Origin: Escherichia phage AnnaHegner_Bas87
Strand: one strand, 5' to 3'
DNA: 64,000 bases
Sequence record: PQ850594.1
Made by a program: the position numbers and the translations under genes. The notes beneath the pieces are model-generated. The model saw nothing but the letters and a program-made list of their open reading frames with translations. It did not search any database and had not been told where the DNA came from. How positions within the stretch are numbered: the first letter of the stretch is position 1; every line of letters begins with the position of its first letter. Below, piece by piece: positions 27,119-42,681 of the stretch.

Positions 27119-27140
27119 ATTTATTACCTTAGGTTACATA

Positions 27141-27170
27141 AAAGAAAAGGCCACCCGAAATGGGTAGCCT
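27141..27170 (-). terminator. rho-independent terminator (minus strand)
   Basis: AGGCTACCC-loop-GGGTGGCCT hairpin (G-U wobble on minus strand) then TTTCTTTT. Confidence 0.55.
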
Positions 27171-27174
27171 TATA

Positions 27175-27492
27175 TTAACTTGAGCTTAAAGCTCCTTTTC
27201 GACCGCCTGCTGATTTTCCAGCACGATCTCCACTTTTGCCGCCGTTCGAGCGATTTCGAGAGACTGATTCAACACGTAAGTTACTTGACGCATTAGAACC
27301 TCCCGACTTGATTGATCGTTTGTGTCCAACATCTTTACCTCGGACAGCAGCTTTTCCATCGCGCTTTTCAACGATGCGACGTGCACGGTGGCGCTGAGCA
27401 TCTCCGCTCTTGCTACCAACGCCGGTCTCACCCCTTGCGATTGCAGTTCTTCGTTCTTGTGCATAATCACGTTTCGCCTTATCGGTCATCAC
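27175..27492 (-). CDS. basic Gly/Lys/Arg-rich protein, KGG-repeat-like
   Basis: strong TAAGGAG RBS and TAATGTATA motif upstream; preferred over overlapping alternative-frame ORF 27186-27470. Confidence 0.45.
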   Translation of the reverse strand: MMTDKAKRDYAQERRTAIARGETGVGSKSGDAQRHRARRIVEKRDGKAAVRGKDVGHKRSIKSGGSNASSNLRVESVSRNRSNGGKSGDRAGKSAGGRKGALSSS

Positions 27493-27524
27493 AACTCCTT
27501 AACATATCAGTGTACACTAAGGAG

Positions 27525-27533
27525 TATACATTA
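27525..27533 (-). promoter_or_regulatory. TAATGTATA promoter-like element (minus strand)
   Basis: exact motif in the 44 nt gap between the PhoH stop and the 27492 start. Confidence 0.5.
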
Positions 27534-27536
27534 TGT

Positions 27537-28274
27537 TTATGATTTTTCAGATTCCATTGCTTTAACAATAGCTTTACAGAAACCTGAACGAACAATATCG
27601 TCTGATTCACCATCTACTAGAGCGGCAAATTCAAATAACTGGTGACGGTAGATGAAATCAGTAGCCCAATCCAGACCACTCTCACCACGCATATCATGCT
27701 GATTAGTATCTCCCATGCAGAACATCTGAGAGGTTTCACCAAGACGTGTCATGATTGAATATGCTTCATCAGGAGTAGTATTCTGGAACTCATCAACAAT
27801 CACGATGGCGTCATTGAATGATCGACCACGCAGATATTCCAGAGGTACGAACTCAATGTTACCATTACCTACTTGACATTCGTAGAAACCTTTACCGTAG
27901 CGCTGAGTAATAACATCAACGATTGGCATCAGGTATGGTTCAAACTTCTCACGAAGCCCACCGGGAAGTAGTCCAAGACTGTTACCCATACCAACAGCAG
28001 GTCGGCTTAGGATAATCTTCTCAATCTTCCCACTCTTCAGAGCATCGATCACTGTAGAAGTGATTACGAATGTCTTACCACAGCCAGCAGGAGCATCTGT
28101 GAATACAACCTGTTTGGTTTTAATTGCATCAAGCAGCTCACTCTGGAATTGGTTCTGAGGTACTACCGGCTTAGCAAGAACTACTTCTTCAAATTCCCGC
28201 TTTCCTTTCTTGGTGACGAGAGCTTCACGACGTAATTCTCTCCGTGATGCTTTCCGAGATTCTCTACGACTCAT
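27537..28274 (-). CDS. phoH: PhoH-like ATPase
   Basis: Walker A APAGCGKTF and overall PhoH-like layout. Confidence 0.8.
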   Translation of the reverse strand: MSRRESRKASRRELRREALVTKKGKREFEEVVLAKPVVPQNQFQSELLDAIKTKQVVFTDAPAGCGKTFVITSTVIDALKSGKIEKIILSRPAVGMGNSLGLLPGGLREKFEPYLMPIVDVITQRYGKGFYECQVGNGNIEFVPLEYLRGRSFNDAIVIVDEFQNTTPDEAYSIMTRLGETSQMFCMGDTNQHDMRGESGLDWATDFIYRHQLFEFAALVDGESDDIVRSGFCKAIVKAMESEKS

Positions 28275-28452: not shown

Positions 28453-28773
28453 TCAGATTGATTTGTCCTTATGTAAACGGTATACTTCAGTAGCCATACA
28501 AGCTATACGCTCGTCATGAGGAAGATGCATACCAGTGGAGCCATTCCATCCATTGAACTCTGAATCGAAGAATCCAATAGGCTCAGGATACATCTCTTGC
28601 AAGGTGGTTAAGTCATCAGCCACTTGTTGCCACTTATCGTCAGACCAGATTGGGTCATCCAACCAATAATACAAATAGGAGTGGATAAGCATCTGTGTTC
28701 TGTGTCGTTTAATCACTTCAGCAGGACTGATTTCATTTCCGTTACCAGTCCTAAATGTATTATTGTTGATCAT
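28453..28773 (-). CDS. small protein resembling the N-terminal Ia domain of NAD-dependent DNA ligase
   Basis: IHSYLYYWLDDPIWSDDKWQQVADDL...YPE parallels the LigA H.YLY...D.PEI.D..YD..L pattern; no adenylation domain present. Confidence 0.35.
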   Translation of the reverse strand: MINNNTFRTGNGNEISPAEVIKRHRTQMLIHSYLYYWLDDPIWSDDKWQQVADDLTTLQEMYPEPIGFFDSEFNGWNGSTGMHLPHDERIACMATEVYRLHKDKSI

Positions 28774-29249: not shown

Positions 29250-29558
29250 TTAGATAACCTTGTGCTTGTAGGTGTTAGGTTTGTAGTAATGCAACCAGTT
29301 TATGTGTTGCTTCTGTTCAAGGTAGTGCCTGCAATCATGACAAAAAGCATGACCCAAACCTGTTTCCTCGTTCAGCTTGAAATTGATAAGAAGCTTCTTC
29401 TTTTGACAGAAGCTACATACTTTAGTGGGCTTCACGTAGTGCGTCCCATGAGATTGGGAAAAGTTTACGAAGCTCTTCATCAACAGTTGATGCGAATAAA
29501 CGCACTTCGTATTGAGCATGGTCTGACAGACGTTGACGACACAACTCTGACCAACCAA
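29250..29558 (-). CDS. Cys-rich putative zinc-binding protein
   Basis: CSFCQKKK...CHDCRH; start uncertain because it overlaps the ThyX-like 3' end. Confidence 0.3.
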   Translation of the reverse strand: MVGQSCVVNVCQTMLNTKCVYSHQLLMKSFVNFSQSHGTHYVKPTKVCSFCQKKKLLINFKLNEETGLGHAFCHDCRHYLEQKQHINWLHYYKPNTYKHKVI

Positions 29559-30072
29559 ATAAAGACCCTGTCCACACCCACTCAGTGATCATGCCCTGAG
29601 GCAATACGAATCGAGCTTGCTCTGGAGCGATAAACTTAATCAATTCATCATACGACTCAAGAGCTGTTTCGTATGCCCGATTAATCAGAACTAGTGCAGA
29701 GTTTTGTGCTCCTGTGGTGAGGAGATTCCCCGCACCTGCATGGAGGTCCGAAGGTCTTTCAAAAATCTCTTTAGGGATGAAGAGTTCAACTGCTCCATCT
29801 TTATACCGCCGGGACATTTCGTTCCATGAGAATCCAACTTGGTGTTTATTGAGTTGTCTAGCAATTGCAATGGGAGCCTTACACCGAAAGGTGATTTGAG
29901 GGTGTCGAAAAGGAGTCACATGACGTTCCCGAGCTAAGAATTTAATCAACCGCTCGTCACGTTCGTTCAGATCACCATCTCGTGTCACACCAAAGGAAAC
30001 CCTTGCTGCATTGACCACAGATTTGTCGGAACCCATGTGCTCTACCAGTGTTGCTTTTAAAAAATCAGACAT
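29422..30072 (-). CDS. thyX: ThyX-family (flavin-dependent thymidylate synthase-like) protein with divergent signature
   Basis: overall ThyX pattern but the canonical RHR-X7-8-S motif reads KHQVGFSWNEMSRRY. Confidence 0.55.
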   Translation of the reverse strand: MSDFLKATLVEHMGSDKSVVNAARVSFGVTRDGDLNERDERLIKFLARERHVTPFRHPQITFRCKAPIAIARQLNKHQVGFSWNEMSRRYKDGAVELFIPKEIFERPSDLHAGAGNLLTTGAQNSALVLINRAYETALESYDELIKFIAPEQARFVLPQGMITEWVWTGSLFGWSELCRQRLSDHAQYEVRLFASTVDEELRKLFPISWDALREAH

Positions 30073-30532
30073 ACTTCAACTTCTCCTTGTTGTAAACTTC
30101 TTCTGCCTCTTCGCAAGAAGCAAAAGTCCCTAAATGTATATTCTTACCTTTGACGCCAATGATGGCTCGGTATCTATCACCAGAAGTTGTCTTACGAAGA
30201 TACACACCCCTAGGAAGATTTCCTATCTTGCTATCAACATCATACTGCTTTCTGTTATGGCAGTTAGTGGATGGATTTACATCTCTTAGGTTATCAATCG
30301 AATCATTAAGTTTGTTCTGGTCGATGTGGTCAATTTCAAACTCAGGAAACTTTCCATGAACAAAGAACCAAGCAAGGCGACAAGCTCTGTAGCTTTTCCC
30401 TTCATACTCAATATAACGATAACCTAGAGAAGATACATATCCAGCTTGATTCCCTTTAACCCTTCGACCTTTTGTGTTCTTCCAGAAGAAGGCTCCAGTC
30501 TTAGGGTTATATTCCAAGTCATCTTGTATCAT
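30065..30532 (-). CDS. HNH homing endonuclease (HNH_3-type with AP2-like domain)
   Basis: YRACRLAW...IDHIDQNKLNDSIDNLR and AP2-like RYRAIIGVKGKNIHLGTF..EEAEEVY; stop overlaps the ThyX-like start. Confidence 0.7.
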   Translation of the reverse strand: MIQDDLEYNPKTGAFFWKNTKGRRVKGNQAGYVSSLGYRYIEYEGKSYRACRLAWFFVHGKFPEFEIDHIDQNKLNDSIDNLRDVNPSTNCHNRKQYDVDSKIGNLPRGVYLRKTTSGDRYRAIIGVKGKNIHLGTFASCEEAEEVYNKEKLKYV

Positions 30533-30539
30533 CTCTTCC

Positions 30540-30752
30540 TTAATAATAAACTTTTGGTACTACTACAATGAAACCCGCTGCTGTCATATATGCACGGTGG
30601 ATTGAAATCTTCGAATCACGACCCATCTTCTTGAGGGCACGTTTAGTGCATCGTGCAGTTTTACGAGTAGCACACGTGTTAACCCTTGGATACTCCATCT
30701 CTGGATATTCAGAAACAACAGCCCAAAAATACACATCTTTTCCTTGAGTCAT
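30540..30752 (-). CDS. small protein, KVYY family member 1
   Basis: W.VV...TR..AR..KRALK....ISI.....Y ending KVYY; four paralogs in the window. Confidence 0.4.
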   Translation of the reverse strand: MTQGKDVYFWAVVSEYPEMEYPRVNTCATRKTARCTKRALKKMGRDSKISIHRAYMTAAGFIVVVPKVYY

Positions 30753-30767
30753 AATAGCACCTATTCT

Positions 30768-30983
30768 TTAATAGTAAATCTTTTTATAAATCAGGTTGCT
30801 TCCACTTTCTGTTTCAATCCCTTTCTGGATTGTAATCTTAGAAGCACCGGTATTAGCAATTTTTAAAGCTCGTTTAAAGCGGCGAGCCTCTCTCCGTGTT
30901 GTGTATGAGGAGAAGCTAGGGATTGTACTATCAAAATTAAACCACTTAACTACCCAAAAAGTAATCCAAGGTTTCTTTTCCAT
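30768..30983 (-). CDS. small protein, KVYY family member 2
   Basis: TRREARRFKRALK...ITIQK ending KIYY. Confidence 0.4.
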   Translation of the reverse strand: MEKKPWITFWVVKWFNFDSTIPSFSSYTTRREARRFKRALKIANTGASKITIQKGIETESGSNLIYKKIYY

Positions 30984-32847: not shown

Positions 32848-33063
32848 CTAGTAATAAACCTTGCTGGATATGAATCCAGCACTGTTATGGATATTTTCAA
32901 TCCAACGATGAATCTCCACCTTTTCAGCGATTCCTAAAGCTTTTGTAGCTTTTATAGTTTTCTTAGCAAGACGAGCCTCTTGTCTTGTGTTGAATAATTG
33001 AATACAATCACCACCAAGAGCTTTGTTAGCCCATTTAGTACGAACTGCCCATAATTTATCCAT
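32848..33063 (-). CDS. small protein, KVYY family member 3
   Basis: NTRQEARLAKKTIK...VEIHR ending KVYY. Confidence 0.4.
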   Translation of the reverse strand: MDKLWAVRTKWANKALGGDCIQLFNTRQEARLAKKTIKATKALGIAEKVEIHRWIENIHNSAGFISSKVYY

Positions 33064-33471: not shown

Positions 33472-34005
33472 TTATACACCTTTAGATGCAACTACCCCAT
33501 TGCTGCCATTGTAACGACCCTTCACTGCATAGGAATCATCACCAGCGTGAGAGTGTTCAAACATAACCATCTGACCAACACGCATCCCAGCACGAACTCG
33601 TAAGCTGTGGTTGTGGGTAACGTTATGGAATTCAAAGGTCAGCTTACTGCTGTTAAACCCTGCATCAGCCCAACCAGCATGTAAGTGGTTCAAACCACAA
33701 CGAGCCATTGAGGAGCGAAGTACAAACAGACTTGAGATGTTATCTGGAAGGTTAAACTCTTCCATTGAGTGCGCTAAGAAGAATTGTCCCGGAGTGATGA
33801 CAATACCATCTTCAGGGATTTTCACCTCTTTCCACTTGAGGTTTTCTTTAGCATCAATGTCAACAATGCCGTCAGCCTGTTCTTCAACAAGGATAGTATC
33901 ACCAATACGGATATCCACACTAGCAGCGTTAACATATTTATGCTCCGCATCTAAAAAGCCATTATCAATAACACTGTGTAATTCTTGAGAACCTAAAAGA
34001 CTCAT
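33472..34005 (-). CDS. dcd: dCTP deaminase / dUTPase-superfamily enzyme
   Basis: HAGWADAGFNS...GMRVGQMV matches the dCTP deaminase G.iDpGf...pGmri.Q pattern. Confidence 0.65.
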   Translation of the reverse strand: MSLLGSQELHSVIDNGFLDAEHKYVNAASVDIRIGDTILVEEQADGIVDIDAKENLKWKEVKIPEDGIVITPGQFFLAHSMEEFNLPDNISSLFVLRSSMARCGLNHLHAGWADAGFNSSKLTFEFHNVTHNHSLRVRAGMRVGQMVMFEHSHAGDDSYAVKGRYNGSNGVVASKGV

Positions 34006-35450
34006 GAGTTTCTGTTTCCTTGTACAGATGATGCCAAATTGTTAATCATGTTACGAGCTGTTTCACGAGTCAGCGTAACACCTGCTAAGTTACTATCAAG
34101 TTCACCAACTAATTCACGAGCTGTTGCTCGGAGTTCTGCACCAAGTGTAGTGTTAGAATGAGCCAGACCATTACGACGACCGACAGGTCGAGGAGTATTG
34201 TTAGCATCATTAGCTAAAGATGCAAAACCAATACGAGCAGCTTCACGAGCGGCTATAGCTGCTACCCGATCTTCCGTAGGGGTTGGCAAATCACCAACTT
34301 CTACACGTTCTATATCACTAGAACGTAGACCCTGAACAACAGAGCTAACTGTTTCCCATGAACGACGGGAGCGCTGCAAATCACCCATAGATGGAGAAGA
34401 AGCAGGTCGAACAGTTACTCCACCTGTATCATGAGTGACGTGCCATGTACGAGTACCCATTCCAGAAGAACGGGCACTACCAAAACTACCAGTGAAAGTA
34501 TCACGAGGTGACTCTGTAGCAGGTGCTGCGAATCTTGTCTGTTGCCAAGAGTCACGTCTGTCAGTTCCCGGAGTCCAAGGCTGCGTAATTGCTTCAGCAC
34601 CTATAGTGGTTAATCCGCTAGACCATTCTGTCTGTAGATTAACTTCCTCGTCCAGATAACTACGACCCCTTTCCTGAGGAATGTTTAATATAGTTTCCAT
34701 CATCTTCAGGGTATAATGACGACGCTGATTCTGATATAAATTTACACCAGCCATAGGTCCAACTAAATCACTAATCAGGTGAACTTCTGGCTCACCGAAA
34801 GCTCCCATTGCAAGGTGCATGTATTCAGTAGAACTGCTATAAACTGCAACAGTTGCTTCAGGCCACTTCTTGTGAACATACTTCATTTCACGACTAGATA
34901 CCACAGGAATGTCACGAGTGTATGACATTGCAAACAAACCTTCGTTTGACACATACAGATTACCAAGAGTCATAAACCCTTGACAGATCATAGGAAAGCG
35001 ACGGCTTAAAGTATCCATATCCAAAGGTAGATTAATCATCATCTGGATTTTAACTTGATCAATCTCAATTTCCAGAATCTCTTGGAAAGTGAAAAGCGCT
35101 TCAGCATAGGTTGTCCCGTTAACAGGCTGAATTAGTCGAGATGTAACCTGAAGCCCCTTACTTTCTGTCCAAGATAAGAAGTTGTCAAGGAATAGTGCAG
35201 CATTACCTACGTTAGCAGGGCTGTTTTCTTGACGAGTGTTCCAACGAAGCCCTCCTTGAACTAGGAAGATATCAACATCATTCGGAGTTCTATTTTGAAA
35301 GAACGTATCACGGATAGCACCACCTGCAATAACAGGATAGATGCCATCAGGGACTACGTTATCTCTGATCAAATTACGAATCAGGTCAAGCCCTACACTG
35401 AGGGCTTCTCCTTCTTGAAGGTTCAATTCAGATAGTGGAATCTTAATCAT
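34002..35450 (-). CDS. Pol-beta-superfamily nucleotidyltransferase (CCA-adding/poly(A) polymerase-like head) with low-complexity C-terminal half
   Basis: PVIAGGAIRDTFF...PNDVDIFLV (GG.xRD plus DxD); C-terminal ~200 aa Ser/Arg/Thr/Gly-rich. Confidence 0.5.
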   Translation of the reverse strand: MIKIPLSELNLQEGEALSVGLDLIRNLIRDNVVPDGIYPVIAGGAIRDTFFQNRTPNDVDIFLVQGGLRWNTRQENSPANVGNAALFLDNFLSWTESKGLQVTSRLIQPVNGTTYAEALFTFQEILEIEIDQVKIQMMINLPLDMDTLSRRFPMICQGFMTLGNLYVSNEGLFAMSYTRDIPVVSSREMKYVHKKWPEATVAVYSSSTEYMHLAMGAFGEPEVHLISDLVGPMAGVNLYQNQRRHYTLKMMETILNIPQERGRSYLDEEVNLQTEWSSGLTTIGAEAITQPWTPGTDRRDSWQQTRFAAPATESPRDTFTGSFGSARSSGMGTRTWHVTHDTGGVTVRPASSPSMGDLQRSRRSWETVSSVVQGLRSSDIERVEVGDLPTPTEDRVAAIAAREAARIGFASLANDANNTPRPVGRRNGLAHSNTTLGAELRATARELVGELDSNLAGVTLTRETARNMINNLASSVQGNRNS

Positions 35451-37820: not shown

Positions 37821-38027
37821 TTAATAAAACGATCGTATTTCTTCCCACACGTCATCTTGCAAGTTTCGGAAACCCTGCAAGGTTTGCTTTGTTCTGTGAA
37901 TAAATTCTTCAGAGTGCTTATCAGGTGTGAGCATACTGACAAACTTTTCATAGCGATTAATCTTCCACCGCATCTTTAAGTAGTCAGATTCAAGCTTTCT
38001 TAATTTCTGCCTGTCAGTTACTGTCAT
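37821..38027 (-). CDS. hypothetical small protein
   Basis: start moved to internal Met to limit overlap with the upstream gene. Confidence 0.3.
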   Translation of the reverse strand: MTVTDRQKLRKLESDYLKMRWKINRYEKFVSMLTPDKHSEEFIHRTKQTLQGFRNLQDDVWEEIRSFY

Positions 38028-38445
38028 CCTTCTCACCTGCCAGATATGCTGTCCAGTCACCCGATTCAACCAGAACATCTTGTTCTTCGTCGATGTGATA
38101 AATCCACGCTTCCACAGTTTCGCCGCTGTCCAATAATACTGGAATCAGCGTACGCTTATAAAAGGTGTATGGGTTATCATTGCCACGGTGACCTTCCAGA
38201 CCGTCATATGGGCCTTCCAGACCAGCTTGGGTTGTTTCAAAGACTTCTACACGAACAGGCTTACCATTGCTGTCATGCTCCAAAGATACACTTGGGAAGT
38301 ATGCTGTGCAATACTGATACAGGTTACAGTTGTTTACTGTCCACCCTTCACCAATAGACACACCACCTGCACGAGCATTGATAGCATGGTTGTGTTGACC
38401 TTTTCTCAAGCTTCCGTAAGTTGCAACTAGTACTTTATCAGACAT
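38014..38445 (-). CDS. gamma-glutamyl cyclotransferase-like (AIG2/GGCT fold) protein
   Basis: N-terminal VATYGSLRKGQHNH (YGSL motif). Confidence 0.55.
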   Translation of the reverse strand: MSDKVLVATYGSLRKGQHNHAINARAGGVSIGEGWTVNNCNLYQYCTAYFPSVSLEHDSNGKPVRVEVFETTQAGLEGPYDGLEGHRGNDNPYTFYKRTLIPVLLDSGETVEAWIYHIDEEQDVLVESGDWTAYLAGEKDDSN

Positions 38446-38962: not shown

Positions 38963-40198
38963 TTACAGAGTTACTGCTACTTCGCTACCTTCAACATTGA
39001 CAGACTCTAACTTGCGAGGGTTATGAATCTGTACCGGATTAACCGGAACGTTCCAACCACTACGGTAGAAGTTACGACCATCACAGAACAAAATGACATT
39101 GGCAGACATTGCATTCGGTTGCAGGTTGTTATGGACATGACGGATATCTGCAATCCAATAACCACGAGACAAAGTGTAACCAGTAGGTGCATTACGAATA
39201 GTTTGAGTATTCATCTGACCTTCCAGTTGCATCTCTTCAGGAACTACATCTACCGAATCAACTGGCTGTGCTACCTGATCTTCCAGTGCAAAGTTTTCAT
39301 CATTAGCGCTTTCGCTGTCATCTACCAACTCACCGTCTCCATCTTCAATCGGAGTCTGGTAAACCACTTTATACTGAGGAGTATAGAGAGGGTTCTGAGC
39401 TTTAACAAACTCAAGGATGTTATGGCGGTAGGTATCCAGAGTTGTACCAGTCAGGCCCGGTGCTGTATTAACTTCCAGTACCCACGCTTCTTGACCTTTG
39501 GTGATAATATCAACTGCACCGAAATCCAGACCCATTGATTCAACAGCTTTCACCGCATTGATCAGAGAGGCGTCATTCGGAGCATCTGTGAAGGAGCTTG
39601 AGTAAACCCAGCCAGTGTGGTGATTACGAATATCTTCACGATAGTTAGGGTCTTCGCGATAACCATTGCGACGAATCTTCTTCTGAACATAGGTGATTAC
39701 ACCTTTGAACACATGGACACGCCACTCACGACGTGGGCCTTGAATGCCTTTAGTGTACAGTTCAGCTCGACCAAGACCATCACCCGGTTCTACAACAACA
39801 ATACCCGAACCAGAGTGACCAGTCAGCTCATGGCGCTCATACACAATATTACCAGTGTTTGACCACTCCTGAGCAGTCTCTTGAACATCTGTGTATTCCA
39901 CAGTTTTAACACCTGCTTGGTCCATCACACTGAAAGCACGACGTTTGTTCGCTGCCATATATAAGGCTGCGGTACGGTTAAGGACGGTTGCAGAACCAAA
40001 GAATGATTCAGGATAGCGACGGTTCCCGTAGTTAACAACCACATCACCTTCACGAGAACGCCAGCGGCTATTCTCTGAAAGAAGACCCATCACGTTAGCA
40101 TTGATGCGTTCATCACGGATAGTATCACTGATAGCAGATACTAGAGCGTTAACAGAATCAGACGGGCCATACGGAAGAACACGGATACGAGTAGTCAT
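38963..40198 (-). CDS. ATP-grasp ligase (RimK/glutathione-synthetase-like) with C-terminal extension
   Basis: EWRVHVFKG ... AWVLEVNTAPGLTG matches ATP-grasp nucleotide-binding strands. Confidence 0.65.
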   Translation of the reverse strand: MTTRIRVLPYGPSDSVNALVSAISDTIRDERINANVMGLLSENSRWRSREGDVVVNYGNRRYPESFFGSATVLNRTAALYMAANKRRAFSVMDQAGVKTVEYTDVQETAQEWSNTGNIVYERHELTGHSGSGIVVVEPGDGLGRAELYTKGIQGPRREWRVHVFKGVITYVQKKIRRNGYREDPNYREDIRNHHTGWVYSSSFTDAPNDASLINAVKAVESMGLDFGAVDIITKGQEAWVLEVNTAPGLTGTTLDTYRHNILEFVKAQNPLYTPQYKVVYQTPIEDGDGELVDDSESANDENFALEDQVAQPVDSVDVVPEEMQLEGQMNTQTIRNAPTGYTLSRGYWIADIRHVHNNLQPNAMSANVILFCDGRNFYRSGWNVPVNPVQIHNPRKLESVNVEGSEVAVTL

Positions 40199-40647: not shown

Positions 40648-42681
40648 TTAGTGTTTACCTTTACAGTAATCTGAATTACAGATCACCCTGTTTTCTTTGT
40701 TCAGTGAGCAAGTTTCTGCATCACGCCACGGAATTTGTTTATAACAGACTGCACAAAACCCAATTGAAGTCCAGAGGGCTTTTGTAAACTCAGCTGTTCG
40801 TTGTCCATCGTAACTGACAACTGTTTTTCGGAGAGAGGTTGACTTTTCTGGAAATGTCTCCGCTTTCTCAGCGGGTACCTCCTTTGGGGCATTCTTTGGA
40901 CCATAAACAGAGATGGCATAAGTATCACCACCACGTTTTTCCAAATACGAATTAGGAACATCTGCAAGTGTGATGTCCCCTGAACGTTTTGCTGAGCTGA
41001 CCATTACAATCATACGGCTAAGCATACGTTCATCAACACGAACAGCTACTTCAGGACGACGTGGGTTGGTTGTGTCTACTGCTTTAGTCCAAATATAACC
41101 TTCAGATAGAGTAACATTCTTTACTTTATCTTTGATTTCTTTGGAGCAGATATAACAAACGTCTTCACCACGAAGTTTACTCATTTCGTTGTCAAACTCG
41201 AAATCAGTCTTGACTTCACCACAGATAGCACATACACCCAAAGGCACATCTTCTTCCTCTTCAGAGGTTTTAGATAACGCTTCGAAGCATTCTGGATGCC
41301 AGTATGCCTGATAAGCAAACACAGCCTTACGAGCATCTTTCCAGTCAATGTGCTTATCACAACCACCACAGTCACCATGAGAGTGAGATTCCCAGAACTT
41401 ACGAGTGACTTCTACACCATTCTTAGTGATGAAGGAGTCCTCTGCATCAAAAGGGATATCATCATCAAAATCAGCAGTAGTGCTTTGAGGCTCCTTATCT
41501 GTAGCATCAACAAACAGCCCTGAAGTTAGTACGAGGCGAATCATACTGTCCACTTCGGAGATACAAGCGATTGTCCCGCGATATACTACCTTTGGGTTTT
41601 CAAGAGCCTTAAGATATTCATCTTTGGCTACGTTGTGAACATCCCCTTCGACATACTCTTGGGCTTTATCATCGTAGATGTAACCAACCATCTTACCACG
41701 ATCTGTGTTGTTATAAGCATGGAACTCGTGAGGAATAATATCCACACGACCATCACGACGATAAGGAAGACCACGATCGGCAGCCAGTTTGTTCTGGTCT
41801 TCAATCGCTTTACGACGACGAATGTCTCCGCTTGTCACGCCGGGCTTGTCGTCTTTGTTTCCGTAAATGTCGCTTGTGCTGCTGCTTGGTTTGTTTGTCT
41901 GTTGGTTCTGATAAAGAGAGGAGTTCGAGTAATAGCCGCCCCAGCGACTCGTTACCGTAAAAACCGGAAGCTTGTGCTCCACCTCTTGAACCAGAGTCAT
42001 ACGACTGTTAGACACATCAAAGATATACTCAGTTCCCACTTTACACTCGAAGTGGTCATTGATACGGTTCTTGTGGGATTTAGAACGCTCTAAAATCCAC
42101 ATAAGCATAGCTTCTTCAGAAGCCCCAAACCAATCCAAACCACAGCGGGCTAGGTGGAAAGGACGCTCATCATTACGGATAATGTGAAGCGTGTTGTCTT
42201 TAGCATCATGCCAAATCAAAGTGAATGCACCATCCAGTTTTTGGATAGTCTCTGCTGCTCCAATGGTGTTAATTGAGTGGCAGATGTTTTCACTATCAAC
42301 TTCGAAACGCTTACTGTCAGGAAGGAGATCTTGATCTAACAGGGTTCCATTATGAACCAGAGTAATATCCCCGTGAGTAAATGGGTGAGCATTTCGAGCA
42401 TTGACAGCCCCACGAGTGGCATGTCGGCTGTGACCAACAATCCACGAAGGAGGAACTACGTAGTTCGTAAGCCCTTTGGTAATATTTGTATATTCTGTCT
42501 GGAGCATAAAAGCATAAGAAGGAAGAGCTTCTTTATAAGAGAAGACTTGCTTTTCACCTTTACGCTGACCAAACACACCAGTTGAGTGCTGTCCACGGAA
42601 AACACCAGCATACAGAAGTTGGTTGAAAATGTCCAAATCTGCTGAGGTCATGTTGCCGCCAGCTAATACGATACCACAAAT
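40648..42681 (-). CDS. class II glutamine amidotransferase / Ntn-hydrolase-fold protein fused to Cys-rich C-terminal domain
   Basis: GATase-II signature (RGQHSTG, HSRHATRG, HNGTL); upstream in-frame ATT-TGT-GGT-ATC-GTA supplies the CGIV nucleophile, so start set to ATT 42679-42681 with AGGTGG RBS. Confidence 0.65.
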   Translation of the reverse strand: MCGIVLAGGNMTSADLDIFNQLLYAGVFRGQHSTGVFGQRKGEKQVFSYKEALPSYAFMLQTEYTNITKGLTNYVVPPSWIVGHSRHATRGAVNARNAHPFTHGDITLVHNGTLLDQDLLPDSKRFEVDSENICHSINTIGAAETIQKLDGAFTLIWHDAKDNTLHIIRNDERPFHLARCGLDWFGASEEAMLMWILERSKSHKNRINDHFECKVGTEYIFDVSNSRMTLVQEVEHKLPVFTVTSRWGGYYSNSSLYQNQQTNKPSSSTSDIYGNKDDKPGVTSGDIRRRKAIEDQNKLAADRGLPYRRDGRVDIIPHEFHAYNNTDRGKMVGYIYDDKAQEYVEGDVHNVAKDEYLKALENPKVVYRGTIACISEVDSMIRLVLTSGLFVDATDKEPQSTTADFDDDIPFDAEDSFITKNGVEVTRKFWESHSHGDCGGCDKHIDWKDARKAVFAYQAYWHPECFEALSKTSEEEEDVPLGVCAICGEVKTDFEFDNEMSKLRGEDVCYICSKEIKDKVKNVTLSEGYIWTKAVDTTNPRRPEVAVRVDERMLSRMIVMVSSAKRSGDITLADVPNSYLEKRGGDTYAISVYGPKNAPKEVPAEKAETFPEKSTSLRKTVVSYDGQRTAEFTKALWTSIGFCAVCYKQIPWRDAETCSLNKENRVICNSDYCKGKH

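Follow-up and report, generated by a model that had tools for sequence, protein, structure and literature searches.

Can a thymidylate synthase that has lost both arginines of its family's signature still make thymidylate? The question is raised by a gene of Escherichia phage AnnaHegner_Bas87 (PQ850594.1), a Suseptimavirus-like coliphage of the Gordonclarkvirinae. The whole 64,000-nucleotide stretch that we analyzed is referred to here as the window. The gene resembles thyX, which encodes flavin-dependent thymidylate synthase (ThyX), and it directly adjoins a gene for an HNH homing endonuclease. A preliminary description of this DNA had proposed that the substituted ThyX protein could be inactive, or could act on another substrate as part of a pyrimidine-modifying activity. 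Comparison with related proteins suggests instead that the gene product is most likely a working thymidylate synthase.

The phage protein is a ThyX homolog with a substituted signature

The product of the thyX open reading frame (ORF; Table 1) aligns with Pfam Thy1 (PF02511) over residues 8-206 and profile positions 1-190 of 191 (E 1.5e-43; 149.3 bits against a cut-off of 24.8). It also scores 123.9 bits against the NCBIfam equivalog TIGR02170 thyX, whose cut-off is 87.9, and matches PHROG 85 'thymidylate synthase'. An AlphaFold2 (AF2) model of the ligand-free monomer, made with 58 aligned sequences, has a predicted local distance difference test (pLDDT) value of 92.1 and a predicted template modeling (pTM) score of 0.87. 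When this model was used in a Foldseek search, the top matches were all Thermotoga maritima ThyX, with TM scores of 0.80-0.85 and E values of ~1e-17. Sequence identity to the T. maritima and Thermus thermophilus enzymes is 32-34%. Judged by profile, fold and substrate-site criteria, the ORF is a flavin-dependent thymidylate synthase.

We aligned the protein with HMMER to T. maritima ThyX 1KQ4, for which native numbering (Tm) is chain numbering minus 12, and to T. thermophilus ThyX 6J61. The canonical motif R78-H79-R80-X7-S88-G89-R90-Y91 aligns with phage K76-H77-Q78-X8-S87-R88-R89-Y90, and the phage/Tm pairs in the alignment to 1KQ4 are K76/R78, H77/H79, Q78/R80, S87/S88, R88/G89 and R89/R90. 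The phage spacer has eight residues (VGFSWNEM) rather than the canonical seven. Upstream, H51-V-T-P-F-R56-H57 pairs with H53-E-T-P-F-E58-H59, which keeps the His and replaces the Glu with Arg. The literal signature RHR-X7-8-S is therefore absent, its His and Ser being kept and both of its Arg residues substituted. No RHR occurs elsewhere in the 216-residue protein. These alignments, together with the Thy1 and TIGR02170 matches, bear out the preliminary description's account of a ThyX homolog in which both signature arginines and E58 are replaced, and they place no intact RHR at another position.

The variant motif is conserved in a large group of viral ThyX proteins

We collected the 120 nearest proteins from a search of 5.8 billion proteins, with identities down to 53%. 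A distant set comprised the best 150 matches, at 40-60% identity, when 1.84 billion sequences, each representing a cluster at 50% identity, were searched exhaustively with HMMER. The phage motif (RQL.KHQ.GF.WNE.SRRY, or KHQ...SRRY) is found in 119 of the 120 closest homologs, the other being P0107, which was unmatched by the search pattern. In the distant set, 122 of 150 representatives were pattern-matched. Their first triplet is KHQ in 61, KHK in 18, RHT in 10, KHT in 8 and RHQ in 7, with other variants besides; none has RHR, and nearly all 122 have SRRY. Across the more distant relatives the K, H, S, R, R and Y of the motif are 88-98% conserved. For comparison, we made a profile of canonical enzymes with sequences from T. 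maritima and T. thermophilus and from mycobacteriophage, cyanophage, halovirus, Gordonia phage and Rhodobacter phage. Its best 120 matches read RHR in every case (120/120) and S[GQAL]RY in 118/120.

Singly fetched phage ThyX sequences of the variant type include that of SIO1 (KHK...SRRY) and those of Bacillus phage PK-1 and Streptomyces phage Anedea (K-Y-x...SRRY). Canonical RHR...S[GQ]RY was read in ThyX from Bxz1-type and L5-type mycobacteriophages, a cyanophage, HVTV-1 and a Gordonia phage. The variant motif type thus occurs in diverse phages, of Roseobacter (SIO1), Bacillus, Streptomyces, Vibrio and Yersinia, and on a giant-virus-like contig. All inspected contigs with a variant ThyX were viral; P0138 lies on a giant-virus-like contig of 559 kb and P0249 on a phage contig of 127 kb. 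A single-protein query against 185,579 bacterial and archaeal species, each represented by one genome, found the close family on a single 526-bp contig only. Together, these alignments indicate that KHQ...SRRY is a conserved signature of a large viral ThyX subfamily, and a product of neither chance nor decay.

Two of the contigs deserve separate description. The 559-kb contig L016 (NCBI GCA_013572995.1) carries an RHT...SRRY ThyX within a eukaryote assembly, in a region of giant-virus-like character where its neighbors are ankyrin, DUF5760, glycosyltransferase-25 and thymidine kinase genes. The 127-kb contig L021 (ENA ERZ28763718) carries an RHQ...SRRY ThyX on a large phage contig that also has a PTPS/QueD-like gene.

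Nucleotide-binding residues are retained and flavin contacts are substituted

To compare residues, 94 variant and 118 canonical sequences were aligned with the query and T. maritima ThyX, and positions are given in Tm numbering. S30, H53, P56, F57, R74, Q75, E86, S88, R90, Y91, E144, R147, R174, Q180 and E182 are conserved in both sets. E58, which is 100% conserved in the canonical set, is variable (A/R/S) in the variant set and is R56 in the phage. R78 is K in 88% and R in 11% of variant sequences, and R80 is variable (Q/K/T...). In the same set G89 is replaced by R in 97%, R143 by P in 90% and N163 by S in 94% (S170 in the phage), and R165 is variable (Y/A/L; F172 in the phage). Failure of the literal signature is thus the rule in this subfamily and not the exception.

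The residues that bind deoxyuridine monophosphate (dUMP) in the T. maritima enzyme, R74, Q75, E86, S88, R90, R147 and R174, are all present in the phage protein as R72, Q73, E85, S87, R89, R154 and R181. These positions are 86-100% conserved across the variant subfamily. H51 and E151, the counterparts of Tm H53 and E144, are also present and show 97% and 100% conservation in the subfamily; we take this pair to be folate/NADPH-site residues, following Koehn et al. 2012.

The canonical contacts to the flavin phosphates and ribityl chain are Tm R78, H79, R80, T55 and R165, equivalent to R95, H96, R97, S71 and R190 of Mycobacterium tuberculosis (Mtb) ThyX. The phage protein has K76, H77, Q78, T53 and F172 at these positions, and the canonical set is not retained. 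In Mtb ThyX the catalytic R199 follows R190 by nine residues, and the same spacing separates Tm R165 from R174. The Tm N-terminal strand (residues 6-11) is absent from the phage protein. According to a review of flavin-dependent thymidylate synthases, RHR and a Ser and an Arg from a neighboring subunit (Mtb S71 and R190; S50 and R165 in Helicobacter pylori) hydrogen-bond the AMP phosphate, ribityl chain and flavin mononucleotide (FMN) phosphate of flavin adenine dinucleotide (FAD), and the first RHR arginine also contacts the isoalloxazine (PMC6514825). In the structure of the ThyX homolog PolB, the first signature arginine touches the nucleotide ribose O3', and the S-x-R triplet, position 89 included, contacts the nucleotide phosphate (PMC5003785). 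The preliminary description was thus right that both arginines are replaced and imprecise in calling them substrate-contacting: RHR makes mainly FAD contacts (PMC6514825), and only its first residue, here conservatively replaced by Lys, touches the ribose O3' of dUMP (PMC5003785).

Selection, inteins and residue conservation point to an active enzyme

We compared thyX alleles that are linked to the HNH gene with HNH-free alleles. Codons 1-76 differ by 44 synonymous and 12 non-synonymous changes, and codons 77-217 by 25 synonymous and 2 non-synonymous changes. This pattern indicates that thyX is under strong purifying selection. Intein-bearing or fusion relatives were also recovered in the distant-set search (P0121, P0134, P0211, P0266, P0221, P0257, P0258 and P0232). 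HNH-type inteins lie exactly within the ThyX motif (KHQSGF^SWNE and KHKVGF^CENE; site pattern (K/R)Hx..G(F/T)^(S/C).NE), and in other relatives LAGLIDADG inteins lie inside H-x^TPF. Because inteins persist in the motif, the spliced host protein is presumably needed. P0232 is a natural fusion of ThyX with a deoxynucleoside monophosphate (dNMP) kinase, which suggests that ThyX makes a dNMP that is then to be phosphorylated. The annotation of phage Bas88 also includes a dNMP kinase.

Since the residues related to dUMP, folate and catalysis are unchanged, the dUMP chemistry should be the same. The intact dUMP-holding residues argue against a different pyrimidine substrate, and conservation of the variant motif in a subfamily under purifying selection argues against an inactive protein. 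Neither the inactivity nor the pyrimidine-modifying activity that had been proposed is supported, and nothing here favors a different product. Together, these results point to an active phage enzyme with a remodeled flavin-phosphate pocket.

Such a pocket would have Lys (or Arg) in place of the first signature Arg and a free position (Q/K/T/V...) in place of the second. With E58, N163 and the partner Arg from the neighboring subunit (Tm R165) gone, the flavin-phosphate site would have been rebuilt. A new and nearly invariant Arg (R88; Tm 89) beside the active-site Ser, possibly with R63, could take over phosphate binding. The predicted reaction is dUMP plus methylenetetrahydrofolate plus NADPH, giving deoxythymidine monophosphate (dTMP). 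A dCTP deaminase, which likely acts upstream and supplies deoxyuridine nucleotides, would be followed by ThyX and then by the dNMP kinase seen in relatives, so that deoxycytidine nucleotides are drawn into dTTP. This route from dCTP through a deoxyuridine nucleotide and dTMP to dTTP fits an A+T-rich genome (the window is 41.9% G+C) that replicates in E. coli.

The HNH gene and the first third of thyX are inherited together

The HNH protein matches HNH_3 over residues 50-89 (E 5.4e-10; EIDHID...N...N..HN) and phrog_99 (E 1.3e-51). No AP2-type DNA-binding domain was detected in it even at E values up to 5. The family is very common in phages: tblastn found it in 2,859 phage records. The HNH TGA lies inside ATGTCTGA, and the two ORFs overlap by 8 nucleotides (nt; 30065-30072), in agreement with the overlap between HNH stop and thyX start already reported for this locus. 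The thyX ribosome-binding site (AAGGAG) is within the 3' end of the HNH gene.

Over about 3 kb around thyX and the HNH gene, the window shares 91-95% identity with the Suseptimavirus phages ECBP2, EK010, E20-1 and 101114UKE3 (UKE3). We aligned the locus from seven phages: the window, EK010, ECBP2, Ptacy1532, Bas86, UKE3 and Bas88. The HNH gene has been inserted precisely after the stop region of a small upstream gene (TAAGGAAGA) and before the thyX ATG. The window, EK010 and ECBP2 have it, with 95.5% amino acid identity, and the Kuravirus phage Ptacy1532 has a copy at 69%. Bas86 carries a different HNH gene (38% identity) at the same site. UKE3 and Bas88 lack the HNH gene, and in these phages 14 nt separate the upstream gene's stop from the thyX start.

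The sequence of thyX follows the distribution of its neighbor. Nucleotides 1-228 are 100% identical among the HNH-positive window, EK010 and ECBP2, and 68% identical to the HNH-negative UKE3 and Bas88, while nt 229-651 are 92-94% identical to all compared genomes. Within this second part, all five genomes agree completely (100%) over nt 251-300, and identity remains 98-100% through nt 350. The mosaic breakpoint falls at the codons for H77-Q-V-G-F-S-W-N, which is the site of the HNH inteins found in relatives. The presence/absence polymorphism and the linked tract indicate that the HNH gene is truly mobile and spreads with the first ~228 nt of thyX. Intronless homing would be expected to leave such a mosaic, through co-conversion of the stretch from the cut site to the endonuclease gene. 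On this basis, the HNH protein probably cleaves within or close to the highly conserved part of thyX that codes for the motif, ~230-350 bp away from its own gene.

EK010 has a second, unrelated HNH gene in the same module. This gene, ORF66 (L001 1279-1773), lies two genes from PhoH and encodes a protein with 25.6% identity to the thyX-linked HNH. It is absent from the window (~27120-27540) and from UKE3, and is therefore another homing-endonuclease presence/absence polymorphism.

Alternative explanations

Several points weigh against an active enzyme. Of the three arginines by which canonical enzymes hold the flavin phosphates, two (R80 and R165) are lost, and Ulmer et al. 2008 (J Bacteriol) reportedly classed the RHR residues of M. 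tuberculosis ThyX as essential. Compensation by R88 is what we infer, and the covariation between the two clades may instead reflect shared ancestry. We found no structure of the (K/R)Hx...SRRY subfamily in the PDB and no published assay of a member in the literature. The ThyX of L5-type mycobacteriophages, which is said to have been assayed, was considered as a characterized member of the subfamily and rejected, as it reads canonical RHR...SQRY. Dictyostelium Thy1 was considered as a cellular member and groups with alphaproteobacterial enzymes (PMC9931769). Searches of the literature on ThyX of phiEco32 and Kuravirus, on ThyX-like enzymes in DNA modification and on Tm residue contacts returned nothing specific. 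Finally, this phage group may modify its DNA. With these points taken into account, we still regard it as probable that the locus pairs an active thymidylate synthase with a mobile homing endonuclease.

The possibility of DNA modification arises because the resistance of Gordonclarkvirinae to restriction-modification (RM) systems is unexplained, and the authors of the BASEL study suspect that genes close to those for replication encode a modification pathway (PMC11990801). From the dCTP deaminase and an adjacent nucleotidyltransferase they speculate about deoxyuridine-containing DNA (dU-DNA), and thyX is unmentioned (PMC11990801). An apparently intact thyX argues against dU-DNA, and this published suggestion for Gordonclarkvirinae sits uneasily with the gene. 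We counted restriction sites over the whole window (1-64000) and took expectations from a first-order Markov model. The counts for EcoRV, EcoKI and EcoP1I sites agree roughly with expectation, and that for EcoRI sites is somewhat low (11 against 22 expected). As these RM sites are present in the window, site avoidance does not explain the resistance. Other sites are scarce: CCWGG (Dcm/EcoRII) occurs 0 times against ~81 expected, GGATCC 0 times against 9.7, CTGCAG once against 16.8 and GATC 129 times against 247. Avoidance is thus selective, since these sites are depleted but the RM sites of the BASEL study are not.

One could therefore propose that ThyX still acts on dUMP through a flavin-bound methylene but does not release dTMP. 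Hydration of the exocyclic methylene intermediate could, for example, give 5-hydroxymethyl-dUMP, and the product released would then lead to thymidine modification and to the restriction resistance of Gordonclarkvirinae. Such chemistry is plausible, given that 5-hydroxymethyl-dUMP is reportedly obtained when ThyX reactions are quenched with acid (Mishanina et al. 2012). The unexplained resistance, the modification pathway suspected by the BASEL authors (PMC11990801) and the undepleted RM target sites would all be accommodated, as would a flavin pocket systematically unlike that of characterized enzymes and a nearby 482-residue 'nucleotidyltransferase' and cluster of amidoligase, ATP-grasp, glutamine amidotransferase and gamma-glutamyl cyclotransferase genes. 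Nevertheless, the motif type is shared by viruses of very different kinds, which makes a role special to one phage group unlikely, and the uracil- and folate-site residues are all canonical. Nor does the annotation of the 42 kb examined in Bas88 list a 5-hydroxymethyldeoxyuridine kinase or an aGPT-Pplase-type gene, and the termini of phiEco32 were mapped by restriction profiling (PMC9965538), so the DNA of relatives is cut by at least some enzymes. We consider this proposal unlikely. The broader version, in which the whole subfamily holds its flavin differently (FMN, or a loose FAD held via the new Arg) and a non-dTMP product such as 5-hydroxymethyl-dUMP feeds a restriction-resistance modification in Gordonclarkvirinae, seems to us decidedly unlikely. 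The literature on 5-hydroxycytosine and thymidine hypermodification was considered as precedent and set aside, because it concerns homologs of ThyA and not ThyX.

The loss of E58, R165, N163 and the literal RHR could also mean that the protein is a catalytically dead relic, or a pseudoenzyme with a regulatory or structural role. This explanation is very improbable given that the motif recurs in 119 of the 120 closest homologs and its key residues are kept in distant relatives. It is also at odds with strong purifying selection, the retention of all dUMP, folate and catalytic residues, the inteins that persist inside the motif of relatives and a confident, ThyX-like AF2 model. A change of nucleotide, to uridine monophosphate (UMP), which the polyoxin enzyme PolB accepts, or to deoxycytidine monophosphate, has a precedent in PolB itself, which is a ThyX homolog that methylates both UMP and dUMP (PMC5003785), and would be in line with the substituted-arginine argument of the preliminary description. 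The query, however, matches T. maritima and T. thermophilus ThyX with E values of 1e-26 to 1e-28 and PolB 4P5A with 3e-18, and Tm R90 and R174, the arginines that recognize O2 and O4 of uracil, are invariant, which is a misfit for cytosine. The context is also one of deoxynucleotides, with dCTP deaminase in the window and a dNMP kinase and ThyX-dNMP kinase fusion in relatives. We therefore hold a switch of nucleotide to be highly improbable. As candidates for a PolB-like UMP methylase, both the query and the variant ThyX of a Streptomyces phage were rejected, since they match T. maritima ThyX far better than 4P5A.

Features of the locus and neighboring genes

Table 1. Positions in the window of thyX, its motifs, the HNH gene and the dCTP deaminase gene.
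Feature	Position	Strand	Basis
thyX, 216-aa ThyX homolog of the viral (K/R)-H-x...S-R-R-Y subfamily	29422..30072	-	Pfam Thy1, TIGR02170, AF2 model
Variant motif K76-H77-Q78-VGFSWNEM-S87-R88-R89-Y90	29803..29847	-	Alignment to 1KQ4 and 6J61
H51-V-T-P-F-R56-H57, counterpart of Tm H53-E-T-P-F-E58-H59	29902..29922	-	Alignment
HNH homing endonuclease gene, free-standing, 155 aa	30065..30532	-	HNH_3, phrog_99
First 228 nt of thyX, tract linked to (co-converted with) HNH	29845..30072	-	Identity comparison of HNH+ and HNH- phages
dCTP deaminase (context, outside the finding)	33472..34005	-	Pfam DCD E 1.6e-34; TIGR02274 107.1 against cut-off 92.8

All of the neighboring genes described here are on the minus strand. 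Directly 3' of thyX, and overlapping its 3' end, is a small Cys-rich ORF of ~60 residues (29250-29432) with weak zinc-ribbon and Lar-like (restriction alleviation) matches, all under the Pfam cut-offs. The ORF at 28453-28773 encodes a stand-alone protein of 106 residues whose only domain is Ia (Nlig-Ia, E 1e-33), the NAD+-binding part of NAD-dependent DNA ligase. It is without adenylation and OB domains, and is called 'DNA ligase' in the annotation of relatives. Three paralogous ORFs of ~70 residues (30540-30752, 30768-30983 and 32848-33063) have no Pfam match and share the pattern W..V...TR.EAR..K.ALK...KI.I with a C-terminal K(V/I)YY. Upstream of thyX there is one copy in UKE3 and Bas88 and two copies in the window and EK010.

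Between the dCTP deaminase gene and that for the DNA polymerase exonuclease subunit lies the gene for the 482-residue protein (34002-35450), which matches only PHROG 12715 'nucleotidyltransferase'. Searches of Pfam, NCBIfam and PDB sequences gave no match, and thus no handle on a modification pathway. This gene is one of the two named by the BASEL authors as having a possible DNA-modification function (PMC11990801). Beside the replication genes are also genes for a GGACT/gamma-glutamyl cyclotransferase-like protein (38014-38445), an ATP-grasp (RimK-like) ligase (38963-40198) and a class-II glutamine amidotransferase (40648-42651). The Bas88 annotation extends this cluster with an 'amidoligase enzyme' and a 'COOH.NH2 ligase'. 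The cluster looks like a pathway that forms peptide or amide bonds.

Significance and comparison with known systems

What is new here is modest. The thyX gene of close relatives is already annotated as 'thymidylate synthase' and its HNH neighbor as an endonuclease; our addition is that the apparent defect is a conserved alternative signature, (K/R)-H-x-x-G-X5-6-S-R-R-Y, probably tied to a remodeled flavin-phosphate pocket, and that the locus bears a clear homing mosaic. Because this signature is normal for a big viral branch of ThyX, the thymidylate synthase annotation is reasonable. Filters based on the RHR-X7-S motif (e.g. PMC2826268) come near to excluding the whole branch, from which they differ at two of four fixed positions and in spacer length. 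How the variant branch holds its flavin is relevant to studies of ThyX inhibitors and cofactors. The mosaic of HNH and thyX also provides a clean natural case of a homing endonuclease dragging along part of a neighboring gene.

The phage enzyme shares its fold, at a TM score of 0.83, and its dUMP, folate and catalytic residues with T. maritima ThyX (TM0449; 1KQ4, 1O26) and T. thermophilus ThyX (6J61). It differs from both in reading KHQ-X8-SRRY instead of RHR-X7-SGRY, in not keeping E58, R80, N163 and R165, and in having P for R143. As the flavin-phosphate residues are different, the flavin phosphates must be held differently. PBCV-1 A674R (2CFA) is a characterized ThyX that is likewise virus-encoded; it is a distant match (E 1.5e-8) and gives no validation of the subfamily. 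PolB of Streptomyces cacaoi (4P5A) is a ThyX-family C5-methylase of UMP and dUMP that binds FAD and has the same set of nucleotide-binding arginines (PMC5003785). Unlike the phage protein, PolB has extra loops 1 and 2 and a role in antibiotic biosynthesis, and it is the weaker match noted above.

The HNH gene resembles the free-standing Seg and Mob endonucleases of T-even phages, I-TevI of the td intron and the HNH inteins of ThyX, in that an endonuclease is located at a thymidylate synthase gene, occurs sporadically among relatives and is inherited together with its flank. In contrast to these systems taken together, the phage endonuclease is of the HNH_3 type, is intergenic and free-standing with neither intron nor intein, and lies beside thyX rather than thyA or td.

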